This document shows, one piece after another, positions 5,639 through 60,088 of a stretch of 64,000 nucleotides of DNA. This DNA is from Acidobacteriota bacterium (GTDB lineage Bacteria > Acidobacteriota > Thermoanaerobaculia > Multivoradales > JAGPDF01). A program made the translations under genes and the position numbers. The notes under the pieces were generated by a model. That model searched no databases and was not told where the DNA came from. It saw only the letters and a program-made list of their open reading frames with translations. The DNA lies in assembly GCA_014584695.1 (NCBI GenBank), contig JACTMI010000032.1, forward strand, positions 105,265-169,264. Direction: 5' to 3'. Positions within the stretch are counted from its first letter, which is position 1; every line of letters starts with the position of its first letter.

Positions 5639-5650
5639 TCGGCCAGCGGA

Positions 5651-5801
5651 GTGAATCCGCTGGCCTCACCCCACCGCGGTCGCTCGCCTGGCGGCTCGCT
5701 CCGCTGGCTCCGTCTCACCTCTCCGCGGTCGCTCGCCTGGCGGCTCGCTCCGCTGGCTCCGTCTCACCCCTCCGCGGTCGCTCGCCTGGCGGCTCGCTCT
5801 T
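5651..5801. repeat. 49-bp direct tandem repeat, about 3 copies (CCGCGGTCGCTCGCCTGGCGGCTCGCTCCGCTGGCTCCGTCTCACC...)
   Basis: CCGCGGT recurs at 5674, 5723 and 5772 (period 49), with near-identical units between convergent genes. Confidence 0.7.
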
Positions 5802-5832
5802 TGGACTCTTCCATCGGGGAGAGCACTGGCGG

Positions 5833-8166: not shown

Positions 8167-8174
8167 GGTCTCTC

Positions 8175-8214
8175 CCGGATTCGAGCGTCGTGCTGGCGAG
8201 GCGCTCGAATCCGG
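8175..8214 (-). promoter_or_regulatory. Perfect 13-bp stem (CCGGATTCGAGCG/CGCTCGAATCCGG, 14-nt loop) ending 9 nt before the receptor start codon
   Basis: Inverted repeat read directly. Its 3' arm overlaps a GGGAGA Shine-Dalgarno-like sequence. Confidence 0.3.
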
Positions 8215-8248
8215 CGGCACACCCGCCGGCCTTGGAGGCCGTCACCAG

Positions 8249-8779: not shown

Positions 8780-8846
8780 GGCGCGGAAAGTATCAGCCTG
8801 GCCGGGAGCGCCCGCCACCCGGCCGGGCAGGTAGACTCCACCAGGA

Positions 8847-9782: not shown

Positions 9783-9789
9783 GCTGGAG

Positions 9790-12768: not shown

Positions 12769-12887
12769 ATCTCGACCTCCCCGGCGGCCGCGCGCCGTGG
12801 GCGGCGCGGGCGGTTCCGTTGGCGCCCGATCTTACCGGGGCGGCGAGGACGCGGCGGCCGCATCCGAATGCGGCGATCTGGCCGCGC

Positions 12888-13616: not shown

Positions 13617-13718
13617 GCCCTCGGAATGTAGCAGGCCCGGGCGCCGCGCGGCCCGGCCACGCTCCGCGCTATCCTGTTGCGGGGGAATGGCCGCCGCGAA
13701 CCGGCGCGCCGATCGACG

Positions 13719-39749: not shown

Positions 39750-39865
39750 CGGGAGTGCGCATTGTAGATTCGACGCGGAAGCGAGTAAAGCCGTCCCGTC
39801 CGCCCTGGCCGATTCGCCGCCGGGCGGGGCGGAGTCCCGCCAGGGCAGGACCCGGACGCCCGATC

Positions 39866-41005
39866 ATGCGCGCACGCACCCTCGACGCCCCCTCCGAAGT
39901 GTCTCCCTCCGGCCCGCTCTGCCCGGTGGCGGAGCGGGTACGAGCCGAATCGGTCCGCCTCTGGGGGGCCGACCGGATGGTGACGATCGTGGGGCAGTCG
40001 CGCGCCATCGAGGAGCCGCTGGAGCGGCTGCTCAAGGTGGCGCGCTTTCACGAGCCGGTCCTGCTGCTGGGCGAGAGCGGTGTCGGCAAGGAGTCGTTCG
40101 CGGCGGCCTTGCACGCGCTCGGCCCCCGCTCCGACAAGCCGTTCGTGTCGGTCAACTGCCCGCAGTATCAGGAGGGCAATCTCACCGTCTCGGAGCTCTT
40201 CGGCCACAAGCGCGGCAGCTTCACCGGCGCCACCAACGATCGCCGGGGCTGCTTCGAGACCGCCGACGGGGGCTCGATCTTCCTCGACGAGGTCGCCGAC
40301 CTGCACATGTCCGCGCAGACCATGCTGCTGCGGGCGCTGGCTAACGGCGAGTTCCAGCCACTCGGCTCGGAGGTGACGCGCAAGGTGAGCGTCCGGGTCG
40401 TCTCGGCGACCAATCGAGACCTGAACAGCCTCGCCGCCGACGAGCGCTTCCGGCGCGACCTGCTGTTCCGGCTCCGCTACTTCCAGGTCGAGATTCCGCC
40501 GCTGCGGTCGCGCGGCGACGACTGGCTGCTGCTGGCGGAGTACTTCCTGGCGCGGCTGGCTCGCCGCTACGGCGTGCGCAAGTGCCTGTCGGGGGACTCG
40601 ATCCGGCTGCTGGAGCGCTACGACTGGCCGGGCAACGTGCGCGAGCTGATCTCGGTGGCGACCGCCGGCTACGCCCTCTCGGACGGCGACCGGATCGAAC
40701 CGCGCGATTTCGTCGATCACCTCGAGCAGGAGAACCGGCCGCGCGGTTCCGAGGTCGACGACCTCTACCGCCGGCTCTGCCGCGAGAGCGGCGATTTCTG
40801 GCAGCTGGTGCAGGAGCCCTTCCTCGACCGCGAGCTGTCGCGGCGCGAGGTGCGGACGCTGGTCGCCCGCGGCCTGCGCGAGTCGCGCGGCAGCTATCGC
40901 CGGCTGCTCGAGGTCTGGAAGATCCCCGCCGAGACCTACCAGAAGTTCATGGACTTCCTGCGCCACCATCGCCTCAAGCCGAGCAACCTGGAAGACGAGA
41001 ACTGA
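39866..41005 (+). CDS. Sigma-54-dependent transcriptional activator with no receiver or sensory domain (PspF-like)
   Basis: GESGVGKE Walker A, ELFGHKRGSFTGA (GAFTGA variant), RELISV. Only ~35 aa precede the AAA+ core. Confidence 0.8.
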   Translation: MRARTLDAPSEVSPSGPLCPVAERVRAESVRLWGADRMVTIVGQSRAIEEPLERLLKVARFHEPVLLLGESGVGKESFAAALHALGPRSDKPFVSVNCPQYQEGNLTVSELFGHKRGSFTGATNDRRGCFETADGGSIFLDEVADLHMSAQTMLLRALANGEFQPLGSEVTRKVSVRVVSATNRDLNSLAADERFRRDLLFRLRYFQVEIPPLRSRGDDWLLLAEYFLARLARRYGVRKCLSGDSIRLLERYDWPGNVRELISVATAGYALSDGDRIEPRDFVDHLEQENRPRGSEVDDLYRRLCRESGDFWQLVQEPFLDRELSRREVRTLVARGLRESRGSYRRLLEVWKIPAETYQKFMDFLRHHRLKPSNLEDEN

Positions 41006-42674: not shown

Positions 42675-42689
42675 TGGCACCGGGGTTGC
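42675..42689 (+). promoter_or_regulatory. Sigma-54 (-24/-12) promoter TGGCAC-cgggg-TTGC
   Basis: Perfect consensus spacing, 83 nt upstream of the precursor A start codon. Confidence 0.65.
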
Positions 42690-42771: not shown

Positions 42772-43079
42772 ATGGAGATGTCGCGCGGTGAGATGCAGGA
42801 CCTGCTGAACAAGTTCGCGGCCCAGAACCCGAAGTACCGCGAGGCCCTGCTGTCGGACCCGAAGTCGGTGGTCCAGAAGCAGTTCGCCCTCAGCCTGGAG
42901 GGGGTCACGGTCAAGGCGGTCGAGGAGAGCCCGAACACCTTGTACGTCATCGTTCCGCGCGCGGCGGCGGCCGGTGAGCTCGACGACTCCGACCTCGAGA
43001 AGGTCGCGGGCGGCGGCGACATCAACGTCAAGCTGGGCGGCGAGGTCAGCTGCTCGCAGGGCAGATCAACCTCGGCTGA
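42772..43079 (+). CDS. RiPP precursor peptide A with NHLP-type leader and GG site; 3' end uncertain (-1 frameshift against a conserved TGA at 43077-43079)
   Basis: GAGGAG RBS. Leader ...LLSDPKSVVQKQFALSLEGVTVKAVEESPNTLYVIVPRAAAAGELDDSDLEKVAGGG, then DINVKLGGEVSCSQG. Frame 0 has no stop until 43596, running antisense through the aminopeptidase gene. The end is set at the conserved TGA. Confidence 0.55.
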
Positions 43080-43181
43080 GCCGGGCGCAGACATCAGGGG
43101 CCGCGGCGGGCGACCGAAAGGTCCCCGCCGCGGCTCTTTCCCTTTCGAGCGGCTGGCAGGTCGGCGCAGGTTGCGCCGGGC

Positions 43182-44309
43182 TCAGCCTTCGCCGGCGAGC
43201 AGGCGCTCCGGATTGAGCCCCTCGAGATCGGGCACCACGAAGCGGCCGTCCTTGCGGATCAGGACGTCATCGAACCAGATCTCGCCGCCGCCGTCGGCCG
43301 CTTCCATCCGCAGCACCAGGTCCCAGTGGACCTGCGAACGGTTGCCGTTGTCCGCGGCGGCGTACGCCTGGCCCGGCGTGAAGTGGATCGAGCCGGCGAT
43401 CTTCTCGTCGAACAGGATGTCCTTCATCGGTGCGGTGATGTGGGGGTTGAAGCCGAGCGCGAACTCGCCGACATGGCGCGCGCCGTCGTCGGTGTCGAGC
43501 AGGCGGTCGAGCGCCTCGCCGGCGCTGCTCGAGGCCTCGACGATGCGGCCGCCGCGAAAGACGAAGCGGACGTTCTCGTGCGTCACCCCGCGGTAGAGCG
43601 ACGGCGTGTTGTAACGGATGGTCCCCTCCACGCTATCGCGCACCGGCGCGGTGTAGACCTCGCCGTCCGGCAGGTTGCGCCGACCGTCGCAGGCCACCGC
43701 GCCGATACCCCTGACGCTGAAGGAGAGGTCGGTGCCCGGAGCGGTGATGCGAACGCGGTCGGCCGCCTCGAGGCGCGCCTTGAGCGGCGCCATGGCGCGC
43801 GACATCCGGGCGTAGTCGAGCGTGCAGACCCGGAAGTAGAGCTCTTCGAAGGCCGCGGTCGAGGTGCCGGCCAGCTGGGCCATCGAGGGACCCGGCCAGC
43901 GGGTCACCACCCAGCGCGTGCGCGGGACGCGAAGGTCCAGGTGGACGCGCTTCCAGAGCAGCGCCTCGAACAGCGCCATCCGCTCGCTCGGCACGTCGGC
44001 GAGCTCCGAGACGTTGTCGCCGCCGCGCAGGCCGATGTAGGCGTCCACCTGGCGCATCACGGCTTCCTCGCCGTCGGCGATCAGCGTCCACTGCTCGGTG
44101 GTCCCGGCCCGCAGCAGCTCGCGGGTCACCGGCGCGCTCTTCAGCAGCACCGCCGGCAGCGCCCCGGCGGCCGCCGCCGCGCGCACCAGGGTGGTCACGA
44201 ACGAGGTCGGCACGTCGATCGCCTCGATCAGCAGCTTGTCGCCCGGAACGAGGGCGCAGGAGTAGCGGACGAGCGTTTCGGCGAGCTTCTGGTGGCGGAG
44301 GTCGGTCAT
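43182..44309 (-). CDS. M29-family aminopeptidase (AmpS/PepS-like)
   Basis: 376 aa from the ATG at 44309; M29-like organisation (HVGEFALG...). It is divergent from and sandwiched between the two precursor genes. Confidence 0.65.
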   Translation of the reverse strand: MTDLRHQKLAETLVRYSCALVPGDKLLIEAIDVPTSFVTTLVRAAAAAGALPAVLLKSAPVTRELLRAGTTEQWTLIADGEEAVMRQVDAYIGLRGGDNVSELADVPSERMALFEALLWKRVHLDLRVPRTRWVVTRWPGPSMAQLAGTSTAAFEELYFRVCTLDYARMSRAMAPLKARLEAADRVRITAPGTDLSFSVRGIGAVACDGRRNLPDGEVYTAPVRDSVEGTIRYNTPSLYRGVTHENVRFVFRGGRIVEASSSAGEALDRLLDTDDGARHVGEFALGFNPHITAPMKDILFDEKIAGSIHFTPGQAYAAADNGNRSQVHWDLVLRMEAADGGGEIWFDDVLIRKDGRFVVPDLEGLNPERLLAGEG

Positions 44310-44522: not shown

Positions 44523-44537
44523 TGGCATCGGGGTTGC
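44523..44537 (+). promoter_or_regulatory. Sigma-54 (-24/-12) promoter TGGCAT-cgggg-TTGC
   Basis: Same architecture and spacing as the 42675 promoter, 82 nt upstream of the precursor B start. Confidence 0.6.
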
Positions 44538-44618: not shown

Positions 44619-44928
44619 GTGGAGATGTCACGCGGTGAGATGCAGGACCTGCTGAACAAGTTCGCGTCCCAGAACCCGCAGTATCGCGATGCGCTGATCA
44701 AGGACCCGAAGTCGGTGGTGGAGAAGCAGTTCAACATCAGCCTCTCCGGCGTCACCGTCAAGGCCGTGACCGAGGCCCCCGACACGCTGTACGTGATCGT
44801 TCCGCGTGCTGCGGCGGCCGGTGAGCTCGACGACTCCGACCTCGAGAAGGTCGCGGGCGGCGGCGACATCAACGTCAAGCTGGGCGGCGAGGTCAGCTGC
44901 TCGCAGGGCCCAGATCAACCTCGGCTGA
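44619..44928 (+). CDS. RiPP precursor peptide B (paralog of A, GTG/ATG start); 3' end uncertain (+1 frameshift against the same conserved TGA at 44926-44928)
   Basis: Leader about 85% identical to A and an identical core start DINVKLGGEVSCSQG. Frame 0 would read 345 nt into lanM, which is implausible. Confidence 0.55.
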
Positions 44929-45040
44929 GCCGAGGCGGATCCACGAAGCCCGATTCCGGGGGCCCGTGGACGGGCTGCAAGGCCCGCCACGCGGCCCCCG
45001 GTTGTTTCGTGGGCCCCTGCTCGGAGAACCCAAGCTGGCC

Positions 45041-48000
45041 ATGTCGACGATCGCCACTGCGTGCCTGCGTGCCGAGACGCTGTTCGAGCGGCTCGCGCGG
45101 CTGGCCCGCGCTTTCGACGCTCCTCCGGCCTTGGAGGATGCCGCGGTGGCCGCGGCGCTCGAGCCGTGGCGGCGGGCGGTCGCGCGCGGCGACGGCGAGG
45201 CCTTCGCGCGCCGGCTCGCCTGGGACGGCATCGACCCGCGCGTGGCGGCGCTCGCGTTCGTGGAACCGGTAGGAGCGCCCGACGGCCCATGGTGCGTGAA
45301 CATGGAGCGCTGGCTCCATGCCGTGGCGACAAGGGGTCTCGCGAGCTCCGGCAGCGAGCTCGCCGCCGGGCTGCCGTTCGGAGAGTGGGTCGCCAGCTGG
45401 GTCGCAGAAGCGGCCTCCCGCGCCCGGCAGAAGCTGCCGGCGCTCGACGACCTGCTGACGCCGGCGGCGTGGCTGCAGTGGCAGCGGGCCCTCGGCGGGC
45501 GGCTCGCCTGGATCGCCGCGCTGCCGCTCTACGAGCGCTTCGACCTCGAGCGATCGGCGCGGGGCGAAGCGGGTGCGCTAGCCCGATTTCTCGCGGCGCT
45601 CGGCGCCAGCCCGACGGCGTCCGGCCTCGAGCTGCCGGGACTGGTCCGGCAGCTCGCCGGCCGGGCCGAGGACTGGATCGATGCCGGTGTGGAGTGGATC
45701 GGTCGCTTGGCCGCCGATCGCGCCGGCTTCGCACTCGCCTTCGAGGGGGACGCCGATCCCGGTCGGGTCGTGGCGGTGGAGGCCGGGCTCTCCGATCCTC
45801 ACGCCCGTGGCCGCCGTGTCCTGGCGCTCACCTTCGAGTCGGGGCTCGAGGTGATCTACAAGCCCCGGCCGGTCGACCTGGAGTCGGCCTGGTGGCAGCT
45901 CGCGAGCGAGCTCGCCGAGGCCGGTTTCGAGGCCGCCCCGCTGGCGGCGCGGACGCTCGCCCGGCCGGGCTACGGCTGGATGGAAAGGGTGGCCGCCGGC
46001 GGGGTCGACAGCGCGAGCGAGGCCGAGTCCTGGTTCCGCCGCGCGGGCGCGCTGGTCGCGCTGGCATGGGTGCTCGGCGGCCGCGACCTCCACGCCGAGA
46101 ACCTGATCGCCGACCGGCGCGGACCGGTCCTGGTGGACGCGGAGATGCTGCTCGCTCCGGAGCCGGGCGCGCTGCTGCGCAGCGGCCCCGACTCCGTGCT
46201 GGCGACCGGCCTGGTGGCCGATCCCGCGGCCACGGCGGGGCCCGGAGCCTGGGGCTACGCCGGCCTCGACCTGCCGGAGCCGGGCGAGCTGCCCGAAGCC
46301 GACCGGCACTGGGAGAACCTCGGCACCGACCGGCTTCGGCTGGCCTGGCGACGTTTCCCCAGGGCCCTCAAGACCAACGTTCTGAGGTGGCGCGGGCGGC
46401 CCCAGCGTCCCGAGGCCTGGCGGGAGGCCGTGTTGGAGGGCTTCGACCTCGGCATGGCGGCGATTGGCGAGCAGCGGGAGCGGATCGAGCGCTGGTTGGC
46501 GGCGCGCGGCGACACGCCGACGCGCGTTCTGTTCCGTCCGAGCGCCCAGTACGCGACCACGGTCGCCCTGTCGGTCCGTCCCCGCTACGCCAACGACGGG
46601 CTGGCCGGCAGCCTGCTGCGCGAAGCGCTCCTGCAGCCGCTCGTCGGCCTCGCCGAGCGGCCGGCGCTCTGGCCCCTGATCGCCGACGAGCGGGCCGCGC
46701 TCGAAGCGCTCGACCTGCCGGTCTTCCACCTGCCGGCCGGTGCGACGGCGCTCACCAACTCGGCGGGAGAAAGGATCGAGGGCCTGTTCGAGCAGAGCGG
46801 GATCGCGGCCGCTCGCGCGCGGCTCGCCGAGCTCGACGCGGAGAGAATCGAGCGCGAACGCCGCCACCTCGCGGCCGCGCTCGAGCCGCGCCGGCTCGGG
46901 CGCGCGGAGGAGGAGTCCCGGCTCGCGGCCGCGGCGGCCGAGATCGCCGGCGCGCTGGCGATGTCGAAGGCCTTCGCCGCCGTGCCCGCGCCCGGCGCGT
47001 CGCTGCGCGAGCTCGCCCTCTACGGCGGCGCCGCCGGGCGCGCGCTGTTCGCGGCGGGGGCTTGGCGGGCCACCGGCGGAGCGGCCTGGGCATCGATTGC
47101 CGGAGAGATCGCGTCCGGCCTCGTGCGCGCTCTCGCGGCGGTGCCGGCGGAGGCGGAGGGACAGCCATCACGGCCTGGGGGCACCGACGGCTGGGGCTCG
47201 ATTCTCTGGACCTTGGTCACCCTCGCGGAACTGCTCGAGCAGCCGGAGCTGCTCGCGGGCGCGGCGGCGGCCGGCGAGCGTCTCGAAGCCACGCCACGGC
47301 GGCCGGATCTCTGGGGATTCGACCTCGCCGCGGGCGAGGCGGGGGCGTTGCTCGGCTGGCTGGCCCTGGCGCAGGCGAGCGGGGAGGCCGCGGCGCTCGA
47401 GCGCGCGCGCGACAGTGGGCAGCGGCTGCTGTCGAGCCAGCTCCGGTCGGGTCCGGATGCCGGAGGCTGGCCGGCGCCCGGGGGCTCGCCGCCGCTCGCG
47501 GGCTTCGCGCACGGCGCCTCGGGCATCGCCCGTGCCCTCGATGCGCTGGCGGCCGCGACCGGCGAGGGGGAGTATCGCGACGCGGCCGGCGCGGCGCTGC
47601 GCTTCGAGAGCTCGTTGTTCGATCGCCAGCGCGGGGACTGGCCAGCGCGGATCGCCGGCGGCGGTCGCCGGTTCCTGTGCAGCTGGTGCCACGGAGCGCC
47701 GGGGGTGGCGATCGCCCGCGCGCTCCGGCTGGCGGCAGGGGGCGAGGATCGGGCGGCGGCTACGGAGCTCGCGACGGCGCTCGCCACGCTCGCTGGGGCG
47801 CCGCTGCCCGAAGTCGACCACCTCTGCTGCGGCACGGCGGGACGCCTGGCGGCGCAGACGGTCGCCGGGCGGTGGGGCGGCGGCGAGGAAGCGCTGGCGG
47901 CGGGACGGCGGCTGGCGCGCCGGGCCCTGGCGCGCGCTGAAGGCAGCGGCGGCTGGCGGATTCCGGCCGAGCCGCCGGCGGAGCGTCCGGATCTCGGGCT

Positions 48001-48121
48001 GTTCCGAGGCTACCCGGGCCTCGCCTGGAGCCTGATCTCGCTCACCGACGCGGGCGGACCGCTGCCGCTGGTGGCGGCGCTCGAGCTGCCGGCGGAGCGC
48101 CGCCGGAGGAGCCAGCAATGA
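45041..48121 (+). CDS. lanM: Class II lanthipeptide synthetase LanM (dehydratase plus LanC-like cyclase)
   Basis: Kinase-like dehydratase motifs (DLHAENLIA...VLVDAEM). C-terminal LanC zinc-ligand motifs GFAHGASG, SWCHGAPG and CCGTAG. An alternative GTG start at 44966 is possible. Confidence 0.85.
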   Translation: MSTIATACLRAETLFERLARLARAFDAPPALEDAAVAAALEPWRRAVARGDGEAFARRLAWDGIDPRVAALAFVEPVGAPDGPWCVNMERWLHAVATRGLASSGSELAAGLPFGEWVASWVAEAASRARQKLPALDDLLTPAAWLQWQRALGGRLAWIAALPLYERFDLERSARGEAGALARFLAALGASPTASGLELPGLVRQLAGRAEDWIDAGVEWIGRLAADRAGFALAFEGDADPGRVVAVEAGLSDPHARGRRVLALTFESGLEVIYKPRPVDLESAWWQLASELAEAGFEAAPLAARTLARPGYGWMERVAAGGVDSASEAESWFRRAGALVALAWVLGGRDLHAENLIADRRGPVLVDAEMLLAPEPGALLRSGPDSVLATGLVADPAATAGPGAWGYAGLDLPEPGELPEADRHWENLGTDRLRLAWRRFPRALKTNVLRWRGRPQRPEAWREAVLEGFDLGMAAIGEQRERIERWLAARGDTPTRVLFRPSAQYATTVALSVRPRYANDGLAGSLLREALLQPLVGLAERPALWPLIADERAALEALDLPVFHLPAGATALTNSAGERIEGLFEQSGIAAARARLAELDAERIERERRHLAAALEPRRLGRAEEESRLAAAAAEIAGALAMSKAFAAVPAPGASLRELALYGGAAGRALFAAGAWRATGGAAWASIAGEIASGLVRALAAVPAEAEGQPSRPGGTDGWGSILWTLVTLAELLEQPELLAGAAAAGERLEATPRRPDLWGFDLAAGEAGALLGWLALAQASGEAAALERARDSGQRLLSSQLRSGPDAGGWPAPGGSPPLAGFAHGASGIARALDALAAATGEGEYRDAAGAALRFESSLFDRQRGDWPARIAGGGRRFLCSWCHGAPGVAIARALRLAAGGEDRAAATELATALATLAGAPLPEVDHLCCGTAGRLAAQTVAGRWGGGEEALAAGRRLARRALARAEGSGGWRIPAEPPAERPDLGLFRGYPGLAWSLISLTDAGGPLPLVAALELPAERRRRSQQ

Positions 48122-49092
48122 CGACGCCGCAATTCGAGGTCCGCCGGCTCGCATCGCCGGTCGATCCCGCCTTCAGCGCCATGACCTTTCCGCTCTATCG
48201 CCGCCTGCTTTCGCTCGAGCCGACGGTGCGCCACCCCGAGCAGGGCGACCCGCGGCGGATCCAGCCGGTCGCCATCGGCGCCTTCGAGGCGGAGCGGCCG
48301 GTCGGCCTGATCGTGGCCGAGCAGCCCCTCGGGGACAGCGAGCCGGCGGAGCTGCTCTCCCTGTTCGTGGCCGAGGGCGAGCGCGGCCGGGGGGTCGGAG
48401 GCGCCCTGGTCGCCGCGGCCGAGCAGGCCCTCGCGGCCGCGGGGGTCGCGGAGGTGCGCGCGGTGTGGACGGCCGGCAAGCCGGCGATCGAGGCGCTGGA
48501 GCGGATTCTCGCCCGCCACGGCTGGACGCCGCCGGCGGCCCGCACGGTTTCGGCCCGCTTCCGGCCCGAGAAGATGCTCACCCTGCCGCTGTTCTCTCCT
48601 CGTCACCTGGCGTCCCTGGATCCGGGATTCGAGATCTTCCCCTGGGCGGAGCTGCCGGCCGAGGAGCTCGCCGCCCTGCGCGCCTCGAACGAGGCCCGGC
48701 ACTGGATTTCCGACGGTCTCGAGCCCTGGAGCTACCGCGGCGGCGCCGGCTACGACCCGGCGACCAGCGTCGGCGCGCGCCACCAGGGGCGGCTGGTCGG
48801 CTGGGTGCTGACCGAGCGAATCGACGACCGCCTGCTGCGCTGGACCGTGAGCTTCCTGGACAAGCGTCTGTCCCGGCGCGGCCGCATCGTGCCGCTCTAC
48901 AAGTCGTCGCTCGAGCGGGCGGTGGCGGCGGGCTACGAGCTCTGCCTGTTCGTGACCCCCGTCCGGTTCCCCAACATGGTGCGCTTCATCCACAAGTGGA
49001 TCGCCCGCCGGGCGGAGTTCATCGGCGAGACTCGCTCCGCCGGGCGCCGGCTCACCCCGTCGGGCGCCGGCGCGCCCCGCCTTGAATCCTGA
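48118..49092 (+). CDS. GNAT-family N-acetyltransferase, translationally coupled to lanM (ATGA)
   Basis: GERGRGVGGALV acetyl-CoA-binding motif. The start overlaps the lanM stop. Confidence 0.65.
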   Translation: MTTPQFEVRRLASPVDPAFSAMTFPLYRRLLSLEPTVRHPEQGDPRRIQPVAIGAFEAERPVGLIVAEQPLGDSEPAELLSLFVAEGERGRGVGGALVAAAEQALAAAGVAEVRAVWTAGKPAIEALERILARHGWTPPAARTVSARFRPEKMLTLPLFSPRHLASLDPGFEIFPWAELPAEELAALRASNEARHWISDGLEPWSYRGGAGYDPATSVGARHQGRLVGWVLTERIDDRLLRWTVSFLDKRLSRRGRIVPLYKSSLERAVAAGYELCLFVTPVRFPNMVRFIHKWIARRAEFIGETRSAGRRLTPSGAGAPRLES

Positions 49093-49212: not shown

Positions 49213-51276
49213 ATGAGAGCCGTGTGCCCGCGTAGGTCCAGTGCATGGGTACGGGCGGCGATGGCCGCCACGTGGATGACGATGGCCGCATCGCTCGCCG
49301 GCGCGCAGGCGCGCGAGCCGATCACCTACGAGCCGCCGACTTTCCAGTACGGCGAGGGCCGGATCTCGCTCCTGGAGTCGGTTCGATTGACGCTGCAGAA
49401 CGACCCCAAGCTCCTGCTCAAGGACGCCGACGCGCGGCTGCGCGAGGGCGTGGCGCAGGAGCTGCGCGGCGCTTTCGACTGGGTGCTCAAGGGCGAGATC
49501 GCCTGGGATCACCGGGAGCAGGAGCTGACCGACACGGCCCGCAAGACCGAGGTCGACAAGCGGCGCAAGGCCGAGGTCAACGAGCGCGACACCTGCAACG
49601 AGCGCGACCGTCAGCGCGAGATCCTGCAGACCCTGCGCGACGAGCTGGCCGGTGTCGACGACGGCGTCACGCTGGCGCCGCCGGACACTTCGCTCGCCAA
49701 GCAGCTCCAGTTCTTCGACATCCTGATCGCCCAGGCCCAGGATCCGGTGCTGCGCGACTCGATCATCGGCCAGAAGGTGAGCTTCCTGCAGACCGAAGTC
49801 GCGGCGCGCGAGGCCGTGGTCGCCAACCTGGAGCGCGGTTGCGTCCAGGCCGGAATCGACCGGGAGCGGCTGGGCCGGGCTCCCGAGTTCGAGTACTTCG
49901 AGCAAGCCAAGCTCGACCTGCGGGCGAGCCGGACCTTCCGCTCCGGCGTCGTGCTGACGCCGTTCTTGACCGGCCAGTACGACAAGACCCAGTTCGATGG
50001 CAAGCGCAACGGTCCCGAGGAGCAGATCTTCATCCTCGAGCGCAACGACGCGGGCCAACTGGTGGACGTGCCGCTCGAGACCAGCCTCGGGCCGGTGACT
50101 CGGACCATCGACTTCGGCGGCAAGGGGGTCAAGGACCTCTACCAGGCCTCGGTCGGCTTCGAGGTCAACGTGCCGATGCTGCGCGGTCGCGGCGCCGACG
50201 CGGTGGCCGCGCGCGAAGAGGCGGCGCTGCGCGACGCCGAGGCCGCGGGCCTGGCGGTCAAGCACACCGCGGCCGAGTCGGTGCTGCGGACCGCGACCGC
50301 GTACTGGACGCTGCTCGCGAGCCAGGAAAGGGTCCGGGTCCTCGCCAACGCGGTCGCGCTCGAGCAGCGCCTGGTCGAGATGACCCAGGCGCTGATCGAC
50401 GGCCAGGAGATGCCGCGCGCCGAGCTGCCCCGCGCCCTCGCGGCCGAGGCGAACGCCCGCTCGCAGCTCGAATCGGCCCGCCGCGAGCTGGTCAAAGCCC
50501 GCCTCGAGCTGGCGCTCGCGATGGGGGTCGGAGTGGAGTCGGAAGCCAACGCTCCCCTCGCCGAGGGCCCCTTCCCGATGGTCCCCAAGCCGGATGAGAT
50601 CTCGGCGCTGTCCGACCGGGGGCTCGCCCTCGCCGCGGTCGACCGGCGCTTCGATCGCCGCTCGGCCCTGGTGTCGAGCGAGGCGCGGCGGATCGAGACG
50701 CGCGGCGCGCTGCTCGACCAGAAGAGCAAGCTGGACCTCGGGATCACGGTGTCGAGCCGGGCGATCGGCGAGGACAGCCTGTCGAACGCCACCGACACCT
50801 GGGCCAATCCGAGCTGGCGGCTGAAGCTCACTACCGAGCACCCCTTCCGCAACAACGAGCGCGCCGGCCGCTATGCCCAGTCGGTGGCCCGGTTCGACCA
50901 GCAGACGATCCAGACCGGCGACCTGGACCGCAACATCAAGCTCAACGTGGTGCTCGCCCGCCGGTCGCTCGAAGAGGCGATCGCCCGCCACGACGCGGCG
51001 GTCGAGGCCGCCGAGCTCTTCCACCAGACGGTCGAGGCGGAGCTCGAGAAGCTCCGGCTCGGCTCCTCGACGCTGGTCGACGCCATCGTCACCGAGCAGC
51101 AGCAGACGCAGGCCAACCTCAGTCTCATCGCGGCCCAGCAGGAGGTCGCCACCCTGCTCGCCCGGCTCCGCTTCGAGACCGGGACGCTGGTCGACGACAC
51201 CGACGCGGGCTTCTACGTCGACGAGCCGCGGCTGATCTCGCTGCCGGTCGAAGCGGCGGCTGGAGGCGCCCTGTGA
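49213..51276 (+). CDS. TolC-family outer-membrane efflux protein 1
   Basis: AGGAGG RBS, signal peptide, two coiled-coil/beta-barrel repeats typical of the outer-membrane efflux family. Confidence 0.7.
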   Translation: MRAVCPRRSSAWVRAAMAATWMTMAASLAGAQAREPITYEPPTFQYGEGRISLLESVRLTLQNDPKLLLKDADARLREGVAQELRGAFDWVLKGEIAWDHREQELTDTARKTEVDKRRKAEVNERDTCNERDRQREILQTLRDELAGVDDGVTLAPPDTSLAKQLQFFDILIAQAQDPVLRDSIIGQKVSFLQTEVAAREAVVANLERGCVQAGIDRERLGRAPEFEYFEQAKLDLRASRTFRSGVVLTPFLTGQYDKTQFDGKRNGPEEQIFILERNDAGQLVDVPLETSLGPVTRTIDFGGKGVKDLYQASVGFEVNVPMLRGRGADAVAAREEAALRDAEAAGLAVKHTAAESVLRTATAYWTLLASQERVRVLANAVALEQRLVEMTQALIDGQEMPRAELPRALAAEANARSQLESARRELVKARLELALAMGVGVESEANAPLAEGPFPMVPKPDEISALSDRGLALAAVDRRFDRRSALVSSEARRIETRGALLDQKSKLDLGITVSSRAIGEDSLSNATDTWANPSWRLKLTTEHPFRNNERAGRYAQSVARFDQQTIQTGDLDRNIKLNVVLARRSLEEAIARHDAAVEAAELFHQTVEAELEKLRLGSSTLVDAIVTEQQQTQANLSLIAAQQEVATLLARLRFETGTLVDDTDAGFYVDEPRLISLPVEAAAGGAL

Positions 51277-53324
51277 GATCCCTTGCCGCCAACTTCCTGG
51301 CGGCGGGGGCGCTGCTCTTCGCGATCGAGCCGGCGCGAGCCCAGGTGCTCTCGGCGGCCGATGCGGTGAGCGAGACGCTCGCCCACGACCCCAGGGTCGC
51401 CCTCGCGCTGGCCCAGGTCGCGGAGCGCCGCGGCCAGTACCAGGAGTTCACCGGGACCTTCGACGGCGCCGTGTTCTTCAACAGCCAGGTCGACTACACG
51501 CGCCAGGGACTCGCCGGCGAGGTGCTCAAGGAGGAGACCAAGCGACGGGTGCAGCTCGAGCTCGTCGACCGCTTCTTCACCAACGCGGCGAACTCGATCA
51601 ACTCGATTCTCGATGGTGGCGATATCGACGAGACCAGCCTGCTGTTCATCGACACGGCGCAGCGCAATCTCAACGGCTGCTCGCCCACTCAGACCAAGGT
51701 GGAGATCGACCTCGGCCTGGACCTCGAGGGCAACGACCAGGGCACGGTCTTCCTCTGCCTGAACGCGGCCGAGAACTTCGGCGCGGTGCAGGCGATCGGC
51801 CTCGACCTGGCGAACCAGGGGACTCTGTCCACGGATTCGCTCCGCACGCTCTACTTCTTCAGCAAGCTGACCGGGCTCACCGGGCCGCTCGAGGACTTCC
51901 GGCGCGAGACCACGGCGCTGCTCAACGATCAGGGGCGGATCGCGCTGCGCATCGTCCGCCAGGTCGCCGACGGCGCGCGCTTCGCGCGCGCCCGGCTGGG
52001 CGACATGCCGGAGGAGCACGAGCTGATCGACTTCCAGAATCAGCTCGGCTACCGCCATCGCCTGCGCAACGGCATCGGCATCACGCCGACGCTCGAGCTG
52101 CGGGCCACCGAGGAGAACTTCGCCGGCAAGCTGCGCATCGTGCAGTTCGGCGATTCCACCAAGGCCAACCTGTTCACCGCCACGGCGCGCATCGCTTTCG
52201 ACATGCCGCTGGCGCGCAACCGCGGCGAGGCCGCGGTGCGGGCGTCGGAGCTGGCGGCGCAGGCGAACCTGCGGGCCGCCGAAGCGCTCGCGGTGCAGAC
52301 CGCTTCGGACCAGGCGCTCGAGACGCTCACCGCTTACTGGGAGCTGGCGGCGGCCGAGGAGCGGGTCGCCGTGCTCGAGCGTTCGCTGGCGCTCAAGACG
52401 GAGATCGACGGCGCGGTGCGCGACCTGATCGAAGGCCAGGAGCTGCCGGGGGTCGAGCGGCTCCGCAGCTCGGCGCGGGTCGCGGAGGCGCGCGGTCAGT
52501 TGGCGGCGGCGCGGCAGCAGGCCGCGACGGCACGGGTCGAGCTGGCGCGCGCGATGGGCGCCCGCGACGATCCGGGGGCGGAGGCCGGCTTGCGGACCGA
52601 GGGTCTCGCCGACTACGCGGCGCTGCCGCTGGTCGGCGGCGATGACGCGCGGCCGCTGGTGGCGGCCGCGATCGCGAGGCGCGCCGACATCGCCGCCAAC
52701 GACCGCTTCGTCGAAGCCAACCAGATTCTCGAGAAGGCGGCCCGGCTCAACCTGAAGCCGGACGTGACGCTGGCGCTGAACATCTCCTACTCCGGGTTCG
52801 AGGAGACGTTCGAAGAGCGCTACTACGACGTCGAGGGATTCTGGAAGGCCGCGTCGGGCAAGGTCGCGGGGCCGAGCTACGGCCTGGCGCTCCGGTTCAC
52901 CATACCGGTCGGCAACCACGAGGCCCGCGGGCGGCTGATGCAGGCGGAGTCGAAGACGGGGACGGCGCGCATCGATCGCGCCGACCTCGAACGGACCATC
53001 GCGCTCAAGGTCAACGAGGCGGCCGCGTCGCTCGACCGCTCGGCGCGCGAGCTCGAGGCGCGGCTCGCCCACCTGACGCACCAGCAGCGGACGGTGGACG
53101 ACAGCCTCGAGCGGCTGCGCGGCGGGGACCTCTCGGTGCTCGACGTGCTGACCAGCGAGGACCAGCTGACCGAAGCGAAGCTGGGCTGGATCGAGGCGGC
53201 GCGGGCCTACGCCGAGCTGCAGACCCGGTTGCGCTACGAGACCAACACGCTGCTCGCCGATTCGCCATTGGACGCGGATCCGCGGTCGCTGTCGCTGCGG
53301 CCGTTCACGGAGCCGGCGCTCTAG
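51273..53324 (+). CDS. TolC-family outer-membrane efflux protein 2
   Basis: Signal peptide and the same bipartite architecture. ATGA-coupled to TolC 1. Confidence 0.7.
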   Translation: MRSLAANFLAAGALLFAIEPARAQVLSAADAVSETLAHDPRVALALAQVAERRGQYQEFTGTFDGAVFFNSQVDYTRQGLAGEVLKEETKRRVQLELVDRFFTNAANSINSILDGGDIDETSLLFIDTAQRNLNGCSPTQTKVEIDLGLDLEGNDQGTVFLCLNAAENFGAVQAIGLDLANQGTLSTDSLRTLYFFSKLTGLTGPLEDFRRETTALLNDQGRIALRIVRQVADGARFARARLGDMPEEHELIDFQNQLGYRHRLRNGIGITPTLELRATEENFAGKLRIVQFGDSTKANLFTATARIAFDMPLARNRGEAAVRASELAAQANLRAAEALAVQTASDQALETLTAYWELAAAEERVAVLERSLALKTEIDGAVRDLIEGQELPGVERLRSSARVAEARGQLAAARQQAATARVELARAMGARDDPGAEAGLRTEGLADYAALPLVGGDDARPLVAAAIARRADIAANDRFVEANQILEKAARLNLKPDVTLALNISYSGFEETFEERYYDVEGFWKAASGKVAGPSYGLALRFTIPVGNHEARGRLMQAESKTGTARIDRADLERTIALKVNEAAASLDRSARELEARLAHLTHQQRTVDDSLERLRGGDLSVLDVLTSEDQLTEAKLGWIEAARAYAELQTRLRYETNTLLADSPLDADPRSLSLRPFTEPAL

Positions 53325-53354: not shown

Positions 53355-54512
53355 ATGTTCGGCGGAGGTCCCGAGAAGCTGCTGCGCAAGGCGGCGATCG
53401 AGAAGATGTCGTCGCCGGAGCAGCTCGACATGGCGATGCGGGTGACCTCGCCGATGGGCTGGGTGGCGCTGTCGGCGATCGGGGTGGCCCTGGTCGCCGG
53501 CATCGTCTGGAGCATCGTCGGCCGCATTCCCGAGCAGGTCGACGCGCAGGGGGAGCTGCTGCGCGGGGATCGTGTCGGCGCGGTGACGGCGATCGCCTCG
53601 GGCCGGCTCAAGGACGTGGTCGTCCGCATGGGAGACAACATCGAGGTCGGCGATCTCGTGGCCCGGCTCGCGCTGCCGGACATCGAGGCGCAGATCGAGA
53701 AGGTGAAGGCGGACATCCAGGACCTGGAGGCCCGGCAGCGGGTGCAAAGCGGCGAGACCAGCGCCGTGGTCGCCGGCTACCGGTCCAAGCTCTCCGGGCT
53801 CTACGCGCAGCGCCGCAACATGCAGCAGCTGGTGGAGAAGGGGCTGCGCACGCAGAAGGACCTGCTGCAGATCGACGCCCAGATCGCCGACACGCAGGCC
53901 CAGATCGCCCAGACCCAGGGCGGCAGCGACCAGCGCGACCTCCAGGTCGACGACAAGCGGCGGGAGCTGATCCGGCTCGAGTCCCAGCTGGCCGCGACCT
54001 CGGAGCTGCGCTCCTCGGTACCCGGCAGGGTGGTCCAGATCCAGGTCGCGGCGGGGCAGCCGGTGCAAGCAGGAGATTCGGTCGTGCTGATCGAGGACGA
54101 GAGCCTGCCGCTGCACGCGCTGATCCTGATCCCGGGCGTGCAGGGCAAGCGGGTCGTTCCCGGCATGGAGGTCAAGGTCTCGCCGACCGACGTCAAGTCG
54201 GAAGACCACGGCTTCATGCTCGGCAAGGTGACTTCGGTCTCGGACAACGCCGTGGCGCCGCAGGAGCTCGACCGGATTCTCAACAACCAGGCGAAGACCC
54301 AGAAGTACATGGAGCAGGCCCCTTTCATCGCCTTCGCGGACCTGATTCCGGATCCGGCCCCCGGCAACGTCTCCGGCTTCAAGTGGACCTCCGCTCTCGG
54401 CCCGCCGAAGCGAATCACCAGCGGCACGCCCTGCGTCTTCCAGGTGATCGTCGACGAGCGCCGGCCGATCTCCTACGTCGTCCCGATGGTCAAGAAGACG
54501 CTGGGAATCTGA
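53355..54512 (+). CDS. HlyD-family periplasmic adaptor (NHLP-bacteriocin secretion type)
   Basis: GGAGGAGG RBS, N-terminal transmembrane anchor, long coiled-coil, C-terminal beta-domain. Confidence 0.8.
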   Translation: MFGGGPEKLLRKAAIEKMSSPEQLDMAMRVTSPMGWVALSAIGVALVAGIVWSIVGRIPEQVDAQGELLRGDRVGAVTAIASGRLKDVVVRMGDNIEVGDLVARLALPDIEAQIEKVKADIQDLEARQRVQSGETSAVVAGYRSKLSGLYAQRRNMQQLVEKGLRTQKDLLQIDAQIADTQAQIAQTQGGSDQRDLQVDDKRRELIRLESQLAATSELRSSVPGRVVQIQVAAGQPVQAGDSVVLIEDESLPLHALILIPGVQGKRVVPGMEVKVSPTDVKSEDHGFMLGKVTSVSDNAVAPQELDRILNNQAKTQKYMEQAPFIAFADLIPDPAPGNVSGFKWTSALGPPKRITSGTPCVFQVIVDERRPISYVVPMVKKTLGI

Positions 54513-54525: not shown

Positions 54526-56736
54526 GTGAGCAACCCCGCCGCCCCGCCCGCCGCCGAGAGCGAGGCCCAGCCCAAGCCGAGCGGTCCGCCCAGCCGGCGG
54601 GTCAAGGTCCCGACCGTCATCCAGATGGAGGGCGTCGAGTGCGGCGCCGCTTCGCTGGCGATGATCCTCGCCTACTTCGGCCGCATCGCGCCGCTGGAGG
54701 AGCTGCGGGTCGAGTGCGGCGTTTCGCGCGACGGCTCCAAGGCTTCCAACCTCCTGAAGGCGGCGCGCAAGTACGGCCTGGAGTCGAAGGGCTTTAAGTA
54801 CGAGATCGAGCAGCTCTTCCCGCTCAAGTTCCCCTGCATCCTGTTCTGGAACGCCAACCACTTCCTGGTGCTCGAGGGCTTCCGGGGTGGCAAGGTCTAT
54901 CTGAACGACCCGGCGCAGGGGCCGCGCGTCATCACCATGGAGGAGTTCGACGCCGGCTTTTCGGGCGTCGTGCTGACTTTCGAGAAGGGGGCGGACTTCC
55001 AGCCCGGCGGCGACAAGCCGAGCATGTACCACGCGCTCCGGCGGCGCCTGGTCGGTTCCGAGGTGGCGCTGCTGTTCGTCCTGCTCTGCGGCCTGTTCCT
55101 GGTCGTGCCCGGACTGGTCATCCCGACGTTCTCGCGCATCTTCGTCGACGAGTATCTCGGCGCCGGCCGTGATTCGATCATCCGCCCGCTGCTGCTGGGC
55201 ATGGGGATCACCGCGCTCCTGAACATGGCGCTGACCGGGCTGCAGCAGCACTCCCTGCTGCGGCTGGAGACCCGTCTGGCGCTCAAGACCTCGGCGCAGT
55301 TCTTCACCCACGTGCTGCGCCTGCCGATCAACTACTTCGCGCAGCGCTTCGCCGGCGAGATCGGCTCGCGCGTGGCGATCAACGACAAGGTGGCGACGAT
55401 GGTCGGCGGCAAGCTCGCCACCACCGTCATCGACTGCATCCTGGTCGTCTTCTACGGCGCGTTGATGTTCCTGTACGACGGCATCCTGACCTCGGTCGTG
55501 ATCGCCCTGGCGTTGGCCAACATCGTGGCGATGAAGCTGGTCCAACGGGTCCGCACCGACGCTTCCCGGAGGCTGCAGGCGGACAAGGGCAAGCTGGTCG
55601 GCACCGCGATGTACGGCTTGAGGATGATCGAGACGCTCAAGGCGACCGGCTCCGAGCCCGAGTTCTTCGCCCGCTGGTCCGGCTACCAGGCCAAGTCGCT
55701 GCGCGCGCAGCAGGAGCTGCAACTCCTCTCCGAGATGATCAATGTGGTGCCGCAGCTGGTGACGACGCTGATCTCGGCGGTGGTCCTGCTGCTGGGCGGC
55801 CTGCGGGTGATGGACGGCGCGCTCACGGTCGGCATGCTGGTGGCCTACCAGACCCTGTCGGGGAACTTCACCAAGCCGCTCTCGAACCTGGTCAACTTCG
55901 GCGGTTCCTTGCAGGAGCTCGAAGCGGACATGAACCGCCTCGACGACGTGCTTCGCTACCCGCAGGACAAGACCTACGAGCGGGAGGACGTCGGCCGCGA
56001 GGACCGCCGGCTCAAGCTGCAGGGCAAGGTCGAGCTGCGCAACGTGACCTTCGGCTACAGCCCGCTCGAGAAGCCGCTGATCGAGGACTTCAACCTGGTC
56101 ATCCAGCCCGGCCAGCGGGTGGCGCTGGTCGGCGCCTCGGGCAGCGGCAAGTCGACGGTGGCCAAGGTCGTCTCCGGCCTCTACGAACCCTGGCGTGGCG
56201 AGGTGCTGTTCGACGACGTGGCCAGGACTCAGCTGCCGCGCCGCCTGCTCACCAACTCCCTGGGCATGGTCGACCAGGACATCTTCATGTTCGACGGCAC
56301 CATCCAGGAGAACGTGACGATGTGGGACGGCACCATCCCGCTCACCGCGGTGTCGACGGCGGCGCGCGACGCCGCCATCGACGAGGTGATCGAGACCCGC
56401 GAGGGGGCGTATGGCGCCAACGTGACCGAAGGCGGCTCGAACTTCAGCGGCGGGCAGCGCCAGCGGCTCGAGATCGCCCGCGCGCTGGTCGGCGGGCCGA
56501 CGGTGCTGATCCTCGACGAGGCGACGAGCGCGCTCGATCCGGCGACCGAGGTGGTGATCGACGACTCGACGCGGCGACGCGGCTGCACCACGATCATCAT
56601 CGCGCACCGCCTGTCGACGATCCGCGACTCCGACGAGATCATCGTCCTCGAGCGCGGCAAGATCGTCCAGCGCGGCACCCACGAAGAGATGAAGGACCAG
56701 GATGGCCCCTATGCCCGGCTCATCGGCGCCCACTAG
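54526..56736 (+). CDS. ABC exporter with N-terminal C39 bacteriocin-processing peptidase domain
   Basis: C39 catalytic Cys in VPTVIQMEGVECGAASLAMILAYFG, 6-TM domain, Walker A GASGSGKST, signature FSGGQRQRL. Confidence 0.85.
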   Translation: MSNPAAPPAAESEAQPKPSGPPSRRVKVPTVIQMEGVECGAASLAMILAYFGRIAPLEELRVECGVSRDGSKASNLLKAARKYGLESKGFKYEIEQLFPLKFPCILFWNANHFLVLEGFRGGKVYLNDPAQGPRVITMEEFDAGFSGVVLTFEKGADFQPGGDKPSMYHALRRRLVGSEVALLFVLLCGLFLVVPGLVIPTFSRIFVDEYLGAGRDSIIRPLLLGMGITALLNMALTGLQQHSLLRLETRLALKTSAQFFTHVLRLPINYFAQRFAGEIGSRVAINDKVATMVGGKLATTVIDCILVVFYGALMFLYDGILTSVVIALALANIVAMKLVQRVRTDASRRLQADKGKLVGTAMYGLRMIETLKATGSEPEFFARWSGYQAKSLRAQQELQLLSEMINVVPQLVTTLISAVVLLLGGLRVMDGALTVGMLVAYQTLSGNFTKPLSNLVNFGGSLQELEADMNRLDDVLRYPQDKTYEREDVGREDRRLKLQGKVELRNVTFGYSPLEKPLIEDFNLVIQPGQRVALVGASGSGKSTVAKVVSGLYEPWRGEVLFDDVARTQLPRRLLTNSLGMVDQDIFMFDGTIQENVTMWDGTIPLTAVSTAARDAAIDEVIETREGAYGANVTEGGSNFSGGQRQRLEIARALVGGPTVLILDEATSALDPATEVVIDDSTRRRGCTTIIIAHRLSTIRDSDEIIVLERGKIVQRGTHEEMKDQDGPYARLIGAH

Positions 56737-59700: not shown

Positions 59701-60088
59701 GGCGGCGGCGCAGAAGGCCTCGATCGCGGAGGACATCAAGGCGATGCCGATGGGCATGCACACCGTCGTGTCCGAAGGCGGCGGAGCGTTCTCGGGTGGC
59801 CAGAAGCAGCGTCTGATGATCGCCCGCGCGCTGGTCAACAACCCGAAGATCATCTTCCTCGACGAAGCCACCAGCGCGCTCGACAACCGGGCGCAGGCGA
59901 TCGTGACCGAGAGCATGAATCGGCTGCAGGCGACGCGCATCGTCATCGCTCACCGGCTGTCGACGATCGAGGACGCGGACGTCATCTGCTACCTCGATGC
60001 CGGGCAGATCGTCGAGCAGGGCACCTACGCCGAGTTGATGGCCCTGGACGGCAAGTTCGCGGCCCTGGCGAAACGGCAGCTGGCATGA
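56702..60088 (+). CDS. ABC exporter with N-terminal FHA and cNMP-binding-like domains instead of a peptidase
   Basis: FHA (VLGRADDCDVVIAVPSVSRRHAQIERVGEDFVVRDAGSANGLVV). Beta-barrel-like FVLDDPEVAWIVESGKLEIF...VEPGQALFG. TMD, Walker A GGSGCGKST, signature FSGGQKQRL. Confidence 0.8.
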   Translation: MAPMPGSSAPTSARGALKLRVVASSLAELIGREIAVDRAPMVLGRADDCDVVIAVPSVSRRHAQIERVGEDFVVRDAGSANGLVVAGQRVMEARLEPGVSFALGDTHFEVFAEMPPVPQVPDVPAAALPFAVDRTAAIANLSEIIAQIERPQPLEELGERIVTAANKPFVLDDPEVAWIVESGKLEIFTVSIEKGQPVGARDHFLTVEPGQALFGFDTERYGMGSGFLVVGKAGSVLRRFDLARLLDLASVPAHGQRIGKLLDTWIEGLSRRLTHDLPRVPTADLILERGASMPWQAGQKASPGHVVLWVELPAERLLFDGMASLGRDLEGVLFPLGPTCWLELLSSEHELAVTPRGAGESAADPRLWAGLDVFHRVLCECEFVNKKLAFVDEFQRLQRKAEQVEQAQESAYAAIGSVLGGTGVWMRPSSLGVDSGPILKACAVVGDALGIQVRPHPDARDEQSFEDALGGIAAASRFRTRRVTLLDDWWNHDQGPFLGQRAETKTPVAIVPTSPRSYMLVDPISGERVPIDEEVARGLEPFAWTFYRSFPPGALKALDLVKFGARGLKAEFRTIAIMGAAVGMLGTLTPMISGKVFDIAIPQAERGLLWQFTLGLALSAFCSAAFKITQNISLMRVQGKMDYSIQSAVWDRLIDLPMDFFRKYNSGDLADRAAGVDQIRSIVSGAGVAAVLGSLSSLFNAAQMVTYSFQLALTAMALTLVYVGVSWLVNYLQLRHQRKEFALRGKISGLVLQLIGGVAKLRVAGAEGHAFKMWATRFAEQRRISFKIGGIQNVHQIFTSGYPVLSNMAIFFVMFTLRQGALERGEQFDMTTGDFLAFSAAFGIFTSAMQGLGDASLSMLRIVPVFERLKPILTTEPEVDPSKSYPGQLKGEIELSHIWFRYSEDSPWIVRDLSLKIKPGQMVAFVGGSGCGKSTLLKIMLGFEKPQKGSAYFDGQDLATLDLRMVRQQLGVVLQDSRLLPADIFRNIAGATSRTVDDAWAAAQKASIAEDIKAMPMGMHTVVSEGGGAFSGGQKQRLMIARALVNNPKIIFLDEATSALDNRAQAIVTESMNRLQATRIVIAHRLSTIEDADVICYLDAGQIVEQGTYAELMALDGKFAALAKRQLA

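Follow-up and report, generated by a model that had tools for sequence, protein, structure and literature searches.

GNAT enzymes have been found in 184 clusters (~8%) for peptides made by the ribosome and modified after translation (RiPPs) of the NHLP/Nif11 type, where they are the third commonest candidate maturase (Hubrich et al. 2022, PMC8784127). Three pathways that combine a class II lanthionine synthetase, LanM, with a GNAT have been reconstituted, those for kamptornamide, phaeornamide and the nostolysamides, and their products have been named selidamides (PMC8784127). In these pathways the GNATs KspN, PhaN and NpuN attach a C12, 3-OH-C10 or C16 acyl group to the side chain of an ornithine (Orn) or lysine at core position 1 or 2 (PMC8784127). 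Here we describe a GNAT gene (48118..49092, + strand; 324 residues, ATG start) that overlaps the end of a lanM gene in a 64,000-nucleotide stretch of an Acidobacteriota bacterium assembly (GCA_014584695.1, contig JACTMI010000032.1, positions 105,265 to 169,264 of the forward strand), which we call the window. With a probability of roughly three in four, we consider its product to be a selidamide-type peptide N-acyltransferase, cytoplasmic and built as a tandem GNAT, and a homologue of the 'N' proteins KspN, PhaN and NpuN. Judged by its sequence, the enzyme is a new, uncharacterised acidobacterial member of this known acyltransferase family and not an unusual addition to its operon. A first-pass annotation of the same DNA had described GNATs as not standard in class II lanthipeptide operons, which the published survey and the three reconstituted pathways contradict.

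Fatty acyl groups of C10-C16 were attached when the known systems were co-expressed in E. coli, and in the case of PhaN also in P. arcticus (PMC8784127, PMC13647313, PMC13060382). Both KspN and PhaN depend on their cognate leader, and the residue that KspN acylates is the most N-terminal Lys or Orn (PMC13647313). In vivo, NpuN acylates Lys1 of its core, and it does so in vitro with acyl-coenzyme A (acyl-CoA) donors (PMC13060382), which also serve KspN in vitro (PMC13060382, PMC13647313). The AlphaFold 3 model of NpuN is a tandem GNAT with a pyrophosphate loop (P-loop) in the N-terminal domain only (PMC13060382). Acidobacterial GNAT homologues fall in the KspN subclade (subclade b; PMC8784127), and it is from this description, not from a sequence comparison, that we take the kinship of the window GNAT to KspN and PhaN.

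Homology to NpuN extends over the full length of the window GNAT. A tblastn search with the GNAT against 72,556 plasmids (7.3 Gb) gave npuN on plasmid pNPUN01 as its best match (E 6e-21, 91% coverage), and the npu locus was recovered by tblastn from pNPUN01 of Nostoc punctiforme PCC 73102. In BLASTP, residues 19-312 of the window GNAT align with residues 15-293 of NpuN (WP_012412981.1) at 29% identity (E 1e-41). Family-invariant residues that are common to NpuN are found in both lobes: T23 (in an MTFP motif), R89, W136, L201, S217, R221, G228 and W229. The proposed catalytic residues of NpuN, Asp182 and His265, had no unambiguous position match in the GNAT alignment. The sole NCBIfam match to the window GNAT, NF002959, scored 17.9 bits against a cut-off of 124, and a PDB sequence search returned two weak generic GNATs only (E 0.009 and 0.05).

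The predicted fold agrees with this assignment. Pfam Acetyltransf_1 matches residues 50-129 (E 7.6e-11; 42.8 bits, cut-off 20.7), and residues 150-324 have no Pfam match. An AlphaFold2 model calculated from a 64-sequence family alignment has two alpha/beta lobes (mean predicted local distance difference test, pLDDT, 94.5; predicted template modelling score, pTM, 0.86), which we bound at residues ~1-150 (N-lobe) and ~170-311 (C-lobe). Its top Foldseek matches in the PDB are all tandem GNATs (E 7e-13 to 5e-10, TM 0.45-0.57): 2wpx from the clavulanic-acid pathway, VipF (6wqb), the glucosamine N-acetyltransferase 5kf1, MAB_4324 (7q3a) and MshD (1ozp/2c27). According to the model, the C-terminal ~150 residues form a second GNAT lobe instead of a separate domain for peptide binding, which settles a choice that the first-pass annotation had left to a structure search. 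The motif GRGVGGALV occupies residues 90-98, and R89-x-x-G92-x-G94 fits the pyrophosphate loop Q/R-x-x-G-x-G/A; among 64 family members R89 is invariant and G92 nearly invariant. This loop is found in the N-lobe only, as reported for NpuN. At the equivalent place the C-lobe carries a nearly invariant, basic S-R-R-G-R loop (residues 252-256) that does not fit the motif, and either lobe may be the catalytic one, here and for NpuN. The translation and the globular model contain no signal peptide or membrane segment.

The GNAT gene is joined to lanM by a stop/start overlap. Its ATG (48118-48120) and the TGA of the upstream open reading frame (ORF; 48119-48121) share bases within an ATGA at 48118-48121, and the Shine-Dalgarno sequence GGAGGAG at 48105-48111 lies 6 nt 5' of the ATG, which places the whole coupling junction at 48105..48121 (+ strand). 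Long chance ORFs are frequent in DNA of ~72% GC such as that of the window. The GNAT ORF, with a GC content at third codon positions (GC3) of 0.93, resembles the adjoining genes and is therefore coding and not a chance ORF of high-GC DNA. The first-pass description of a 324-residue GNAT with GRGVGGALV starting inside the lanM stop is thus confirmed. We inspected the LanM-GNAT junction in nine relatives (L006, L007, L008, L010, L011, L012, L022, L028 and L029). All but L029 have a 4-nt ATGA or GTGA overlap, at GNAT identities from 100% down to 51%; in L029 (44% identity) the called lanM and GNAT genes overlap by 32 nt instead. Since the overlap is kept at eight of the nine junctions, the arrangement is conserved and not due to chance, and the translational coupling proposed at first pass is real and selected. 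Stop/start overlaps as such are very common in operons, and the one described here lies downstream of a probable attenuator.

A word-indexed search gave 68 GNAT relatives, and those with a source name are Acidobacteriota/Thermoanaerobaculia metagenome-assembled genomes; a hidden Markov model search of 1.84 billion cluster representatives gave 705 at E <= 1e-30. Even the divergent relatives L028 (51% GNAT identity) and L029 (44%) keep the sigma-54 activator, NHLP precursors, LanM and GNAT, together with two OEP-like genes, HlyD, ABC1 and FHA-ABC2. In addition, at least seven cluster representatives (P0069, P0070, P0071, P0074, P0075, P0081 and P0087, from several 50%-identity clusters) are single proteins of 1,374-1,445 residues in which DUF4135 and LANC_like domains are fused to a tandem GNAT through unrelated linkers of 30-45 residues; the domains were confirmed by Pfam for P0069, P0070 and P0087. 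We did not find such natural fusions mentioned in the literature consulted. They provide an argument, independent of the gene overlap, that both enzymes act together.

The upstream gene (45041..48121, + strand) encodes a class II lanthionine synthetase, as the first pass had proposed. It has DUF4135 (E 1.2e-75) and LANC_like (E 9.9e-33) domains and matches TIGR03897 with 468 bits (cut-off 304); its motifs include a kinase-like DLHAENLIA and the cyclase motifs CSWCHGAPG and HLCCGTAG, which hold the zinc-ligand WCHG and CCG. The mechanical ORF begins at 44966 and encodes 1051 residues. Translation probably starts at the ATG at 45041, giving 1026 residues, because the alignment with NpuM (27% identity over the full length) begins at residue 10 counted from this start and because independent gene calls (Logan, 1026 aa) agree. 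A LanM with DUF4135 and a LanC-like domain with zinc ligands, and a precursor core that contains Ser, Thr and Cys when intact, identify the locus as a class II lanthipeptide cluster. With a Gly-Gly precursor of the NHLP/Nif11 kind, LanM and a C39-ABC exporter, the cluster also has the setting in which selidamide GNATs are found.

Two NHLP-leader precursor genes with the same core precede lanM: copy 1 at 42772..43079 (+ strand; conserved stop TGA 43077-43079) and copy 2 at 44619..44928 (+ strand; conserved stop TGA 44926-44928). The first ~80 residues of copy 2 match TIGR03793 (E 3.4e-12) with 46 bits, slightly below the cut-off of 50.9. The leader ends in a double-glycine site, EKVAGG (VAGG), and the core begins GDINVKLGGEVSCSQG. 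Alignment with relatives revealed that both copies carry a deletion in the window, of 19 nt at 43062-43063 in copy 1 and 17 nt at 44909-44910 in copy 2. The deleted core segment, GCGCTGCAGACGATGAT(CC), contains CTGCAG and GATC sites. As a result of the frameshifts, both precursors leave the conserved ...ALQTMIQINLG* end, Thr20 is lost, and the window ORFs run on without a stop to 217 and 314 residues.

These deletions are missing from independent short-read assemblies of the same strain, in which copy 2 (L022, L027 and L024) or copy 1 (L031, L032 and L034) is intact. In the independent assemblies, which come from several sequencing runs, the GNAT is 100% identical, and the 17-nt gap is the sole difference from the window over 14.3 kb. 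Given that the segment is present there, the intact precursor of the strain has 108 residues and the core GDINVKLGGEVSCSQGALQTMIQINLG. The deletions could be due either to an assembly artefact of the window's source or to a sample-specific double lesion. A genuinely long core, programmed frameshifting (at G GGC CCA in copy 2) and pseudogenes were considered and rejected as the primary explanation because the same-strain assemblies are intact.

The intact core contains a single cysteine, Cys13, along with Ser12, Ser14 and Thr20, and Lys6 is its only lysine. Neither an arginase gene among the window gene calls nor an arginine in the intact core was found, which means that a lysine must be the acceptor if the peptide is acylated as in the selidamides, and that no arginase is needed. 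The cores of relatives vary, for example SKVKGDANCNDSDGAMNTVVEINASFSLI and NTVKGDANCSDATASTVVEIQASLF. Three features recur in close as well as distant relatives: the lysine of a 'VK' pair at position 4-6, one Cys only, and a Thr located 7-10 residues downstream. The lysine is kept in cores sampled from 44% to 100% GNAT identity, at 4-6 and not at 1-2. A protein-pattern scan of metagenome contigs for more precursors confirmed none. An exact DNA pattern scan gave nine loci, two of which (L014 and L015) are precursors; at the remaining seven, the encoded protein is unrelated and contains DINVKLGG by chance. A genome-contig scan with NpuA (sequence from PMC13060382) gave only three unrelated Nif11-like loci (L001-L003).

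Beyond the gene structure, coupling, homology, fold, cluster architecture and conserved core Lys, Cys and Thr that we observe here, a pathway can be proposed in which the acceptor residue, acyl-chain type, leader dependence and order of steps are drawn by analogy from the characterised relatives. A sigma-54 promoter would drive the NHLP-leader precursor in its intact form, and LanM and the GNAT would be translated via their overlapping stop/start codons 3' of a strong hairpin. LanM would then dehydrate Thr20, and possibly Ser12 and Ser14, and close one (methyl)lanthionine ring with the sole cysteine, Cys13-Thr20; the Cys4-Thr7 ring of phaeornamide is a precedent for a methyllanthionine (MeLan) with Cys before Thr (PMC8784127). 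By analogy with KspN and PhaN, the GNAT would recognise the leader-bearing precursor in the cytoplasm. It would move an acyl group, probably a medium- or long-chain fatty acyl as in its relatives, from a thioester (acyl-CoA in the characterised enzymes) onto the epsilon-amine of Lys6. Finally, the C39-ABC/ABC2/HlyD/TolC-like machinery would cut after Gly-Gly and export the lipolanthipeptide.

Several points weigh against this proposal. The window GNAT has 29% identity to NpuN, the sole characterised member with which it was compared by sequence, and acyltransfer in the acidobacterial subfamily is a prediction. The candidate acceptor is at core position 6 (4-6 in relatives) compared to 1-2 in the three pathways that have been characterised, and conversion of internal positions by KspN is poor (PMC13647313). 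The window precursors are frameshifted with Thr20 lost, and if this were real in the strain, the pathway would be without a proper substrate. Acyl length cannot be read from sequence, and because NpuN accepts acetyl-CoA in vitro, an acetyl (+42 Da) product may also be formed.

The best surviving alternative, although improbable in our view, is one suggested at first pass: that the GNAT acetylates the alpha-amine of the core N-terminus (+42 Da) after leader removal, as in paenibacillin and goadsporin. Most GNATs use acetyl-CoA, NpuN not only accepts it in vitro but can also modify leaderless nostolysamide C (PMC13060382), and Gly1 of the core is a possible acceptor. However, the C39 domain of the exporter would cut off the leader during secretion, and a cytoplasmic GNAT that has neither signal peptide nor membrane segment would therefore seldom encounter a core with a free N-terminus. 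KspN and PhaN acylate side chains in a leader-dependent manner, NpuN modifies a side chain too (PMC13647313, PMC8784127), and the 'VK' lysine is kept among cores that otherwise differ. A tailoring role, which the first pass had also suggested, remains the best description of the GNAT; it is the N-acetylation of a leaderless core that is unlikely, given that the homologues acylate Lys or Orn side chains.

It is also conceivable, with a smaller probability, that the GNAT serves LanM mainly as a non-catalytic partner, for instance in leader binding or scaffolding, and that its transferase activity is vestigial. The coupling and the natural LanM-GNAT fusions do suggest a physical complex, and several tandem GNATs have one lobe without catalytic function (PMC13060382). 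Against this, R89 is invariant and G92 nearly so in the P-loop, the R-R-G-R of the C-lobe is nearly invariant, the homologues are active, and NpuM and NpuN each function without the other (PMC8784127). We give similarly little weight to the idea that the enzyme acts on a small molecule or another protein and sits next to lanM incidentally. Fusions of the tandem-GNAT family to DUF4915, P450, FemAB and methyltransferase domains do mean that it is not confined to lanthipeptide contexts. Yet adjacency and gene overlap are kept with the whole cluster down to 44% GNAT identity, LanM fusions exist, and the best characterised relative is a RiPP maturase. Self-immunity, in which the GNAT would inactivate the peptide or a toxic intermediate in the producer as MccE does for microcin C, was raised at first pass and is very unlikely: several GNATs in antibiotic clusters are resistance enzymes and the window gene and domain calls include no obvious LanI/LanFEG immunity genes, but nothing else speaks for it, no sequence match to MccE/RimL-type, RimI-type, aminoglycoside or ribosomal-protein acetyltransferases came near a cut-off in NCBIfam, acylation left nostolysamide activity unchanged, a resistance role for NpuN was judged unlikely by the authors (PMC13060382), and LanM-GNAT fusions in several lineages suit a maturase better than an immunity factor.

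Expression of the cluster is probably under enhancer-dependent control, as suggested by promoter sequences and an activator gene. A sigma-54 promoter consensus, TGGCAC-N5-TTGC, lies at 42675..42689 (+ strand), 83 nt 5' of precursor copy 1, and a sigma-54 promoter-like TGGCAT-N5-TTGC at 44523..44537 (+ strand), 82 nt 5' of precursor copy 2 and the LanM-GNAT operon. Upstream of the precursor copies are genes for a HAD hydrolase and for a sigma-54-dependent transcriptional activator (AAA+; 39755..41005, + strand; synteny in L007, L028 and L029). A consensus terminator scan found none; folding revealed strong hairpins 3' of both precursor genes. The one after copy 2, at 44925..45025 (+ strand), is very stable (-74.6 kcal/mol, z = -5.8, equalled by none of 200 shuffles) and is followed by GGUUGUUUCG. 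It stands between copy 2 and lanM, resembles the attenuators typical of lanthipeptide operons, and is a candidate for one that would give a high precursor-to-enzyme ratio. After copy 1, at 43096..43146 (+ strand), a GC-rich 19-bp hairpin with a U-rich, terminator-like CUCUUUCCCUUUC tail was found (-57 kcal/mol, z = -5.1). Adjoining the cluster are genes for an FHA-GAF-SpoIIE phosphatase (36720-38393) and for a cyclic nucleotide monophosphate-binding protein with an FHA domain (38931-39749, - strand). Signalling genes also stand beside the cluster in L009, L028 and L029, with a STAS-domain gene between them in relatives. These neighbours suggest a partner-switching or phospho-threonine control of production.

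Downstream of the GNAT gene are two overlapping genes for large TolC/OEP-like outer-membrane efflux proteins of 687 and 683 residues (49213..53324, + strand), which are kept in L006, L008, L010-L012 and L022-L029. They are followed by a HlyD-type membrane-fusion protein (53355..54512, + strand), an NHLP export ABC transporter with an N-terminal C39 peptidase (NHLM_micro_ABC1; 54526..56736, + strand; TIGR03796, 1090 bits, cut-off 853) and a second NHLP export ABC subunit that carries an additional FHA domain at its N-terminus (NHLM_micro_ABC2; 56702..60088, + strand; TIGR03797, 893 bits, cut-off 709). From its domains, C39-ABC1 is the predicted leader-cleaving exporter. Relatives also have the unusually long twin TolC/OEP-like proteins and the FHA domain on ABC2, and the Nostoc npu cluster has neither. 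According to the window gene and domain calls, no polyketide synthase or fatty acid synthase (PKS/FAS) genes adjoin the cluster. Between the two precursor copies lies a gene for an M29 aminopeptidase (43182..44309, - strand). L007 has this gene and both L028 and L029 lack it, which makes it an accessory gene at best. It is pure speculation that this enzyme could trim N-terminal core residues (GDINV) and expose an acyl-lysine.

The tandem-GNAT family also extends beyond clusters of this kind. The representatives P0141, P0146, P0089 and P0102 are fusions to cytochrome P450, FemAB-like and methyltransferase domains, which hint at other peptide-tailoring combinations. Cyanobacterial proteins of the 'TIGR03032 family' consist of DUF4915 and a tandem GNAT (L005:4411-6522 on a plasmid of Nostoc sp. 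ATCC 53789, H3, H5, H6 and P0090). Their second GNAT lobe matches the C-lobe of the window GNAT (tblastn E 1e-12 to 4e-6), and in L005 the gene after DUF4915-GNAT encodes a cadherin-like protein. The most distant match, P0068 (29% identity), comes from a cluster without LanM (L030, JGI Ga0599166_0000077, 3344-14237). In this cluster three paralogous tandem GNATs each follow a small precursor-like gene that ends in GG or AG plus a short core, and there are also an Asp/Arg beta-hydroxylase and C39-ABC exporters. It may represent a lanthionine-free acylated RiPP family.

Selidamide acyltransferases are under development as tools for gene-encoded lipopeptides, and the cluster in the window is a conserved acidobacterial representative of their setting, with hundreds of full-length GNAT relatives across metagenomes in the profile search. 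Its gene set is minimal (precursor, LanM and GNAT), and related lineages offer natural fusions. We regard it as a reasonable candidate to widen the enzyme toolbox and to ask how two maturases use one leader, although the cluster alone raises no new biological question. Its novelty is modest and lies in the internal candidate acceptor lysine, the LanM-GNAT fusions, the sigma-54/FHA setting and the twin TolC-like genes. It is tempting to go further and see here a distinct acidobacterial lipolanthipeptide branch with internal-Lys acylation, a LanM-GNAT complex (fused elsewhere, ~1,400 residues), sigma-54/FHA/cyclic-nucleotide control and export through twin large TolC-like proteins, an idea that we put forward as tentative and rather doubtful. 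If this were true, a regulated lipopeptide with a signalling or surface-active role would be a likelier product than a classical lantibiotic.

Among known systems, the tandem GNATs of known structure (2wpx, 6wqb, 1ozp/2c27 and 7q3a) are the best structural matches of the window GNAT. These also have two lobes in a chain of ~300 residues; however, they show only 9-18% identity, they act on small molecules or host proteins, and none of them belongs to a RiPP system. The GNATs of class III lipolanthine pathways (microvionin, goadvionin GdvG and the lipoavitides) are likewise members of the GNAT superfamily that attach a lipid to a lanthipeptide. They differ in that their target is the N-terminal alpha-amine of peptides of class III (LanKC), to which they add PKS/FAS acyl units, whereas the synthetase in the window is a LanM, and in the 2022 tree they fall outside the selidamide clade (PMC8784127). 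The KspN and PhaN pathways share an NHLP precursor, LanM, GNAT and a product with a single MeLan ring, predicted in the case of the window, and phaeornamide has the Cys-before-Thr ring that we predict for the window core. Unlike the window cluster, which is without an arginase, they need a peptide arginase for their ornithine acceptor.

The npu system was compared directly with the window cluster. The two differ in the leader (NHLP in the window and Nif11 in npu) and in gene order, which is precursor-LanM-GNAT with a stop/start overlap in the window and LanM-precursor-GNAT with spacers in npu. They also differ in the candidate acceptor (Lys6 and Lys1 for NpuN) and the number of core cysteines (one, and four in NpuA). 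Two TolC-like genes, sigma-54 control and an FHA domain on ABC2 are additional features of the window cluster, whose host is acidobacterium-like with 72% GC, unlike the Nostoc host of npu. Nevertheless, both clusters combine LanM, a Gly-Gly precursor, a GNAT, HlyD, C39-ABC1 and ABC2 in nearly the same order, and NpuN and the window GNAT are homologous over their full length as tandem GNATs with a pyrophosphate loop in the N-lobe only.

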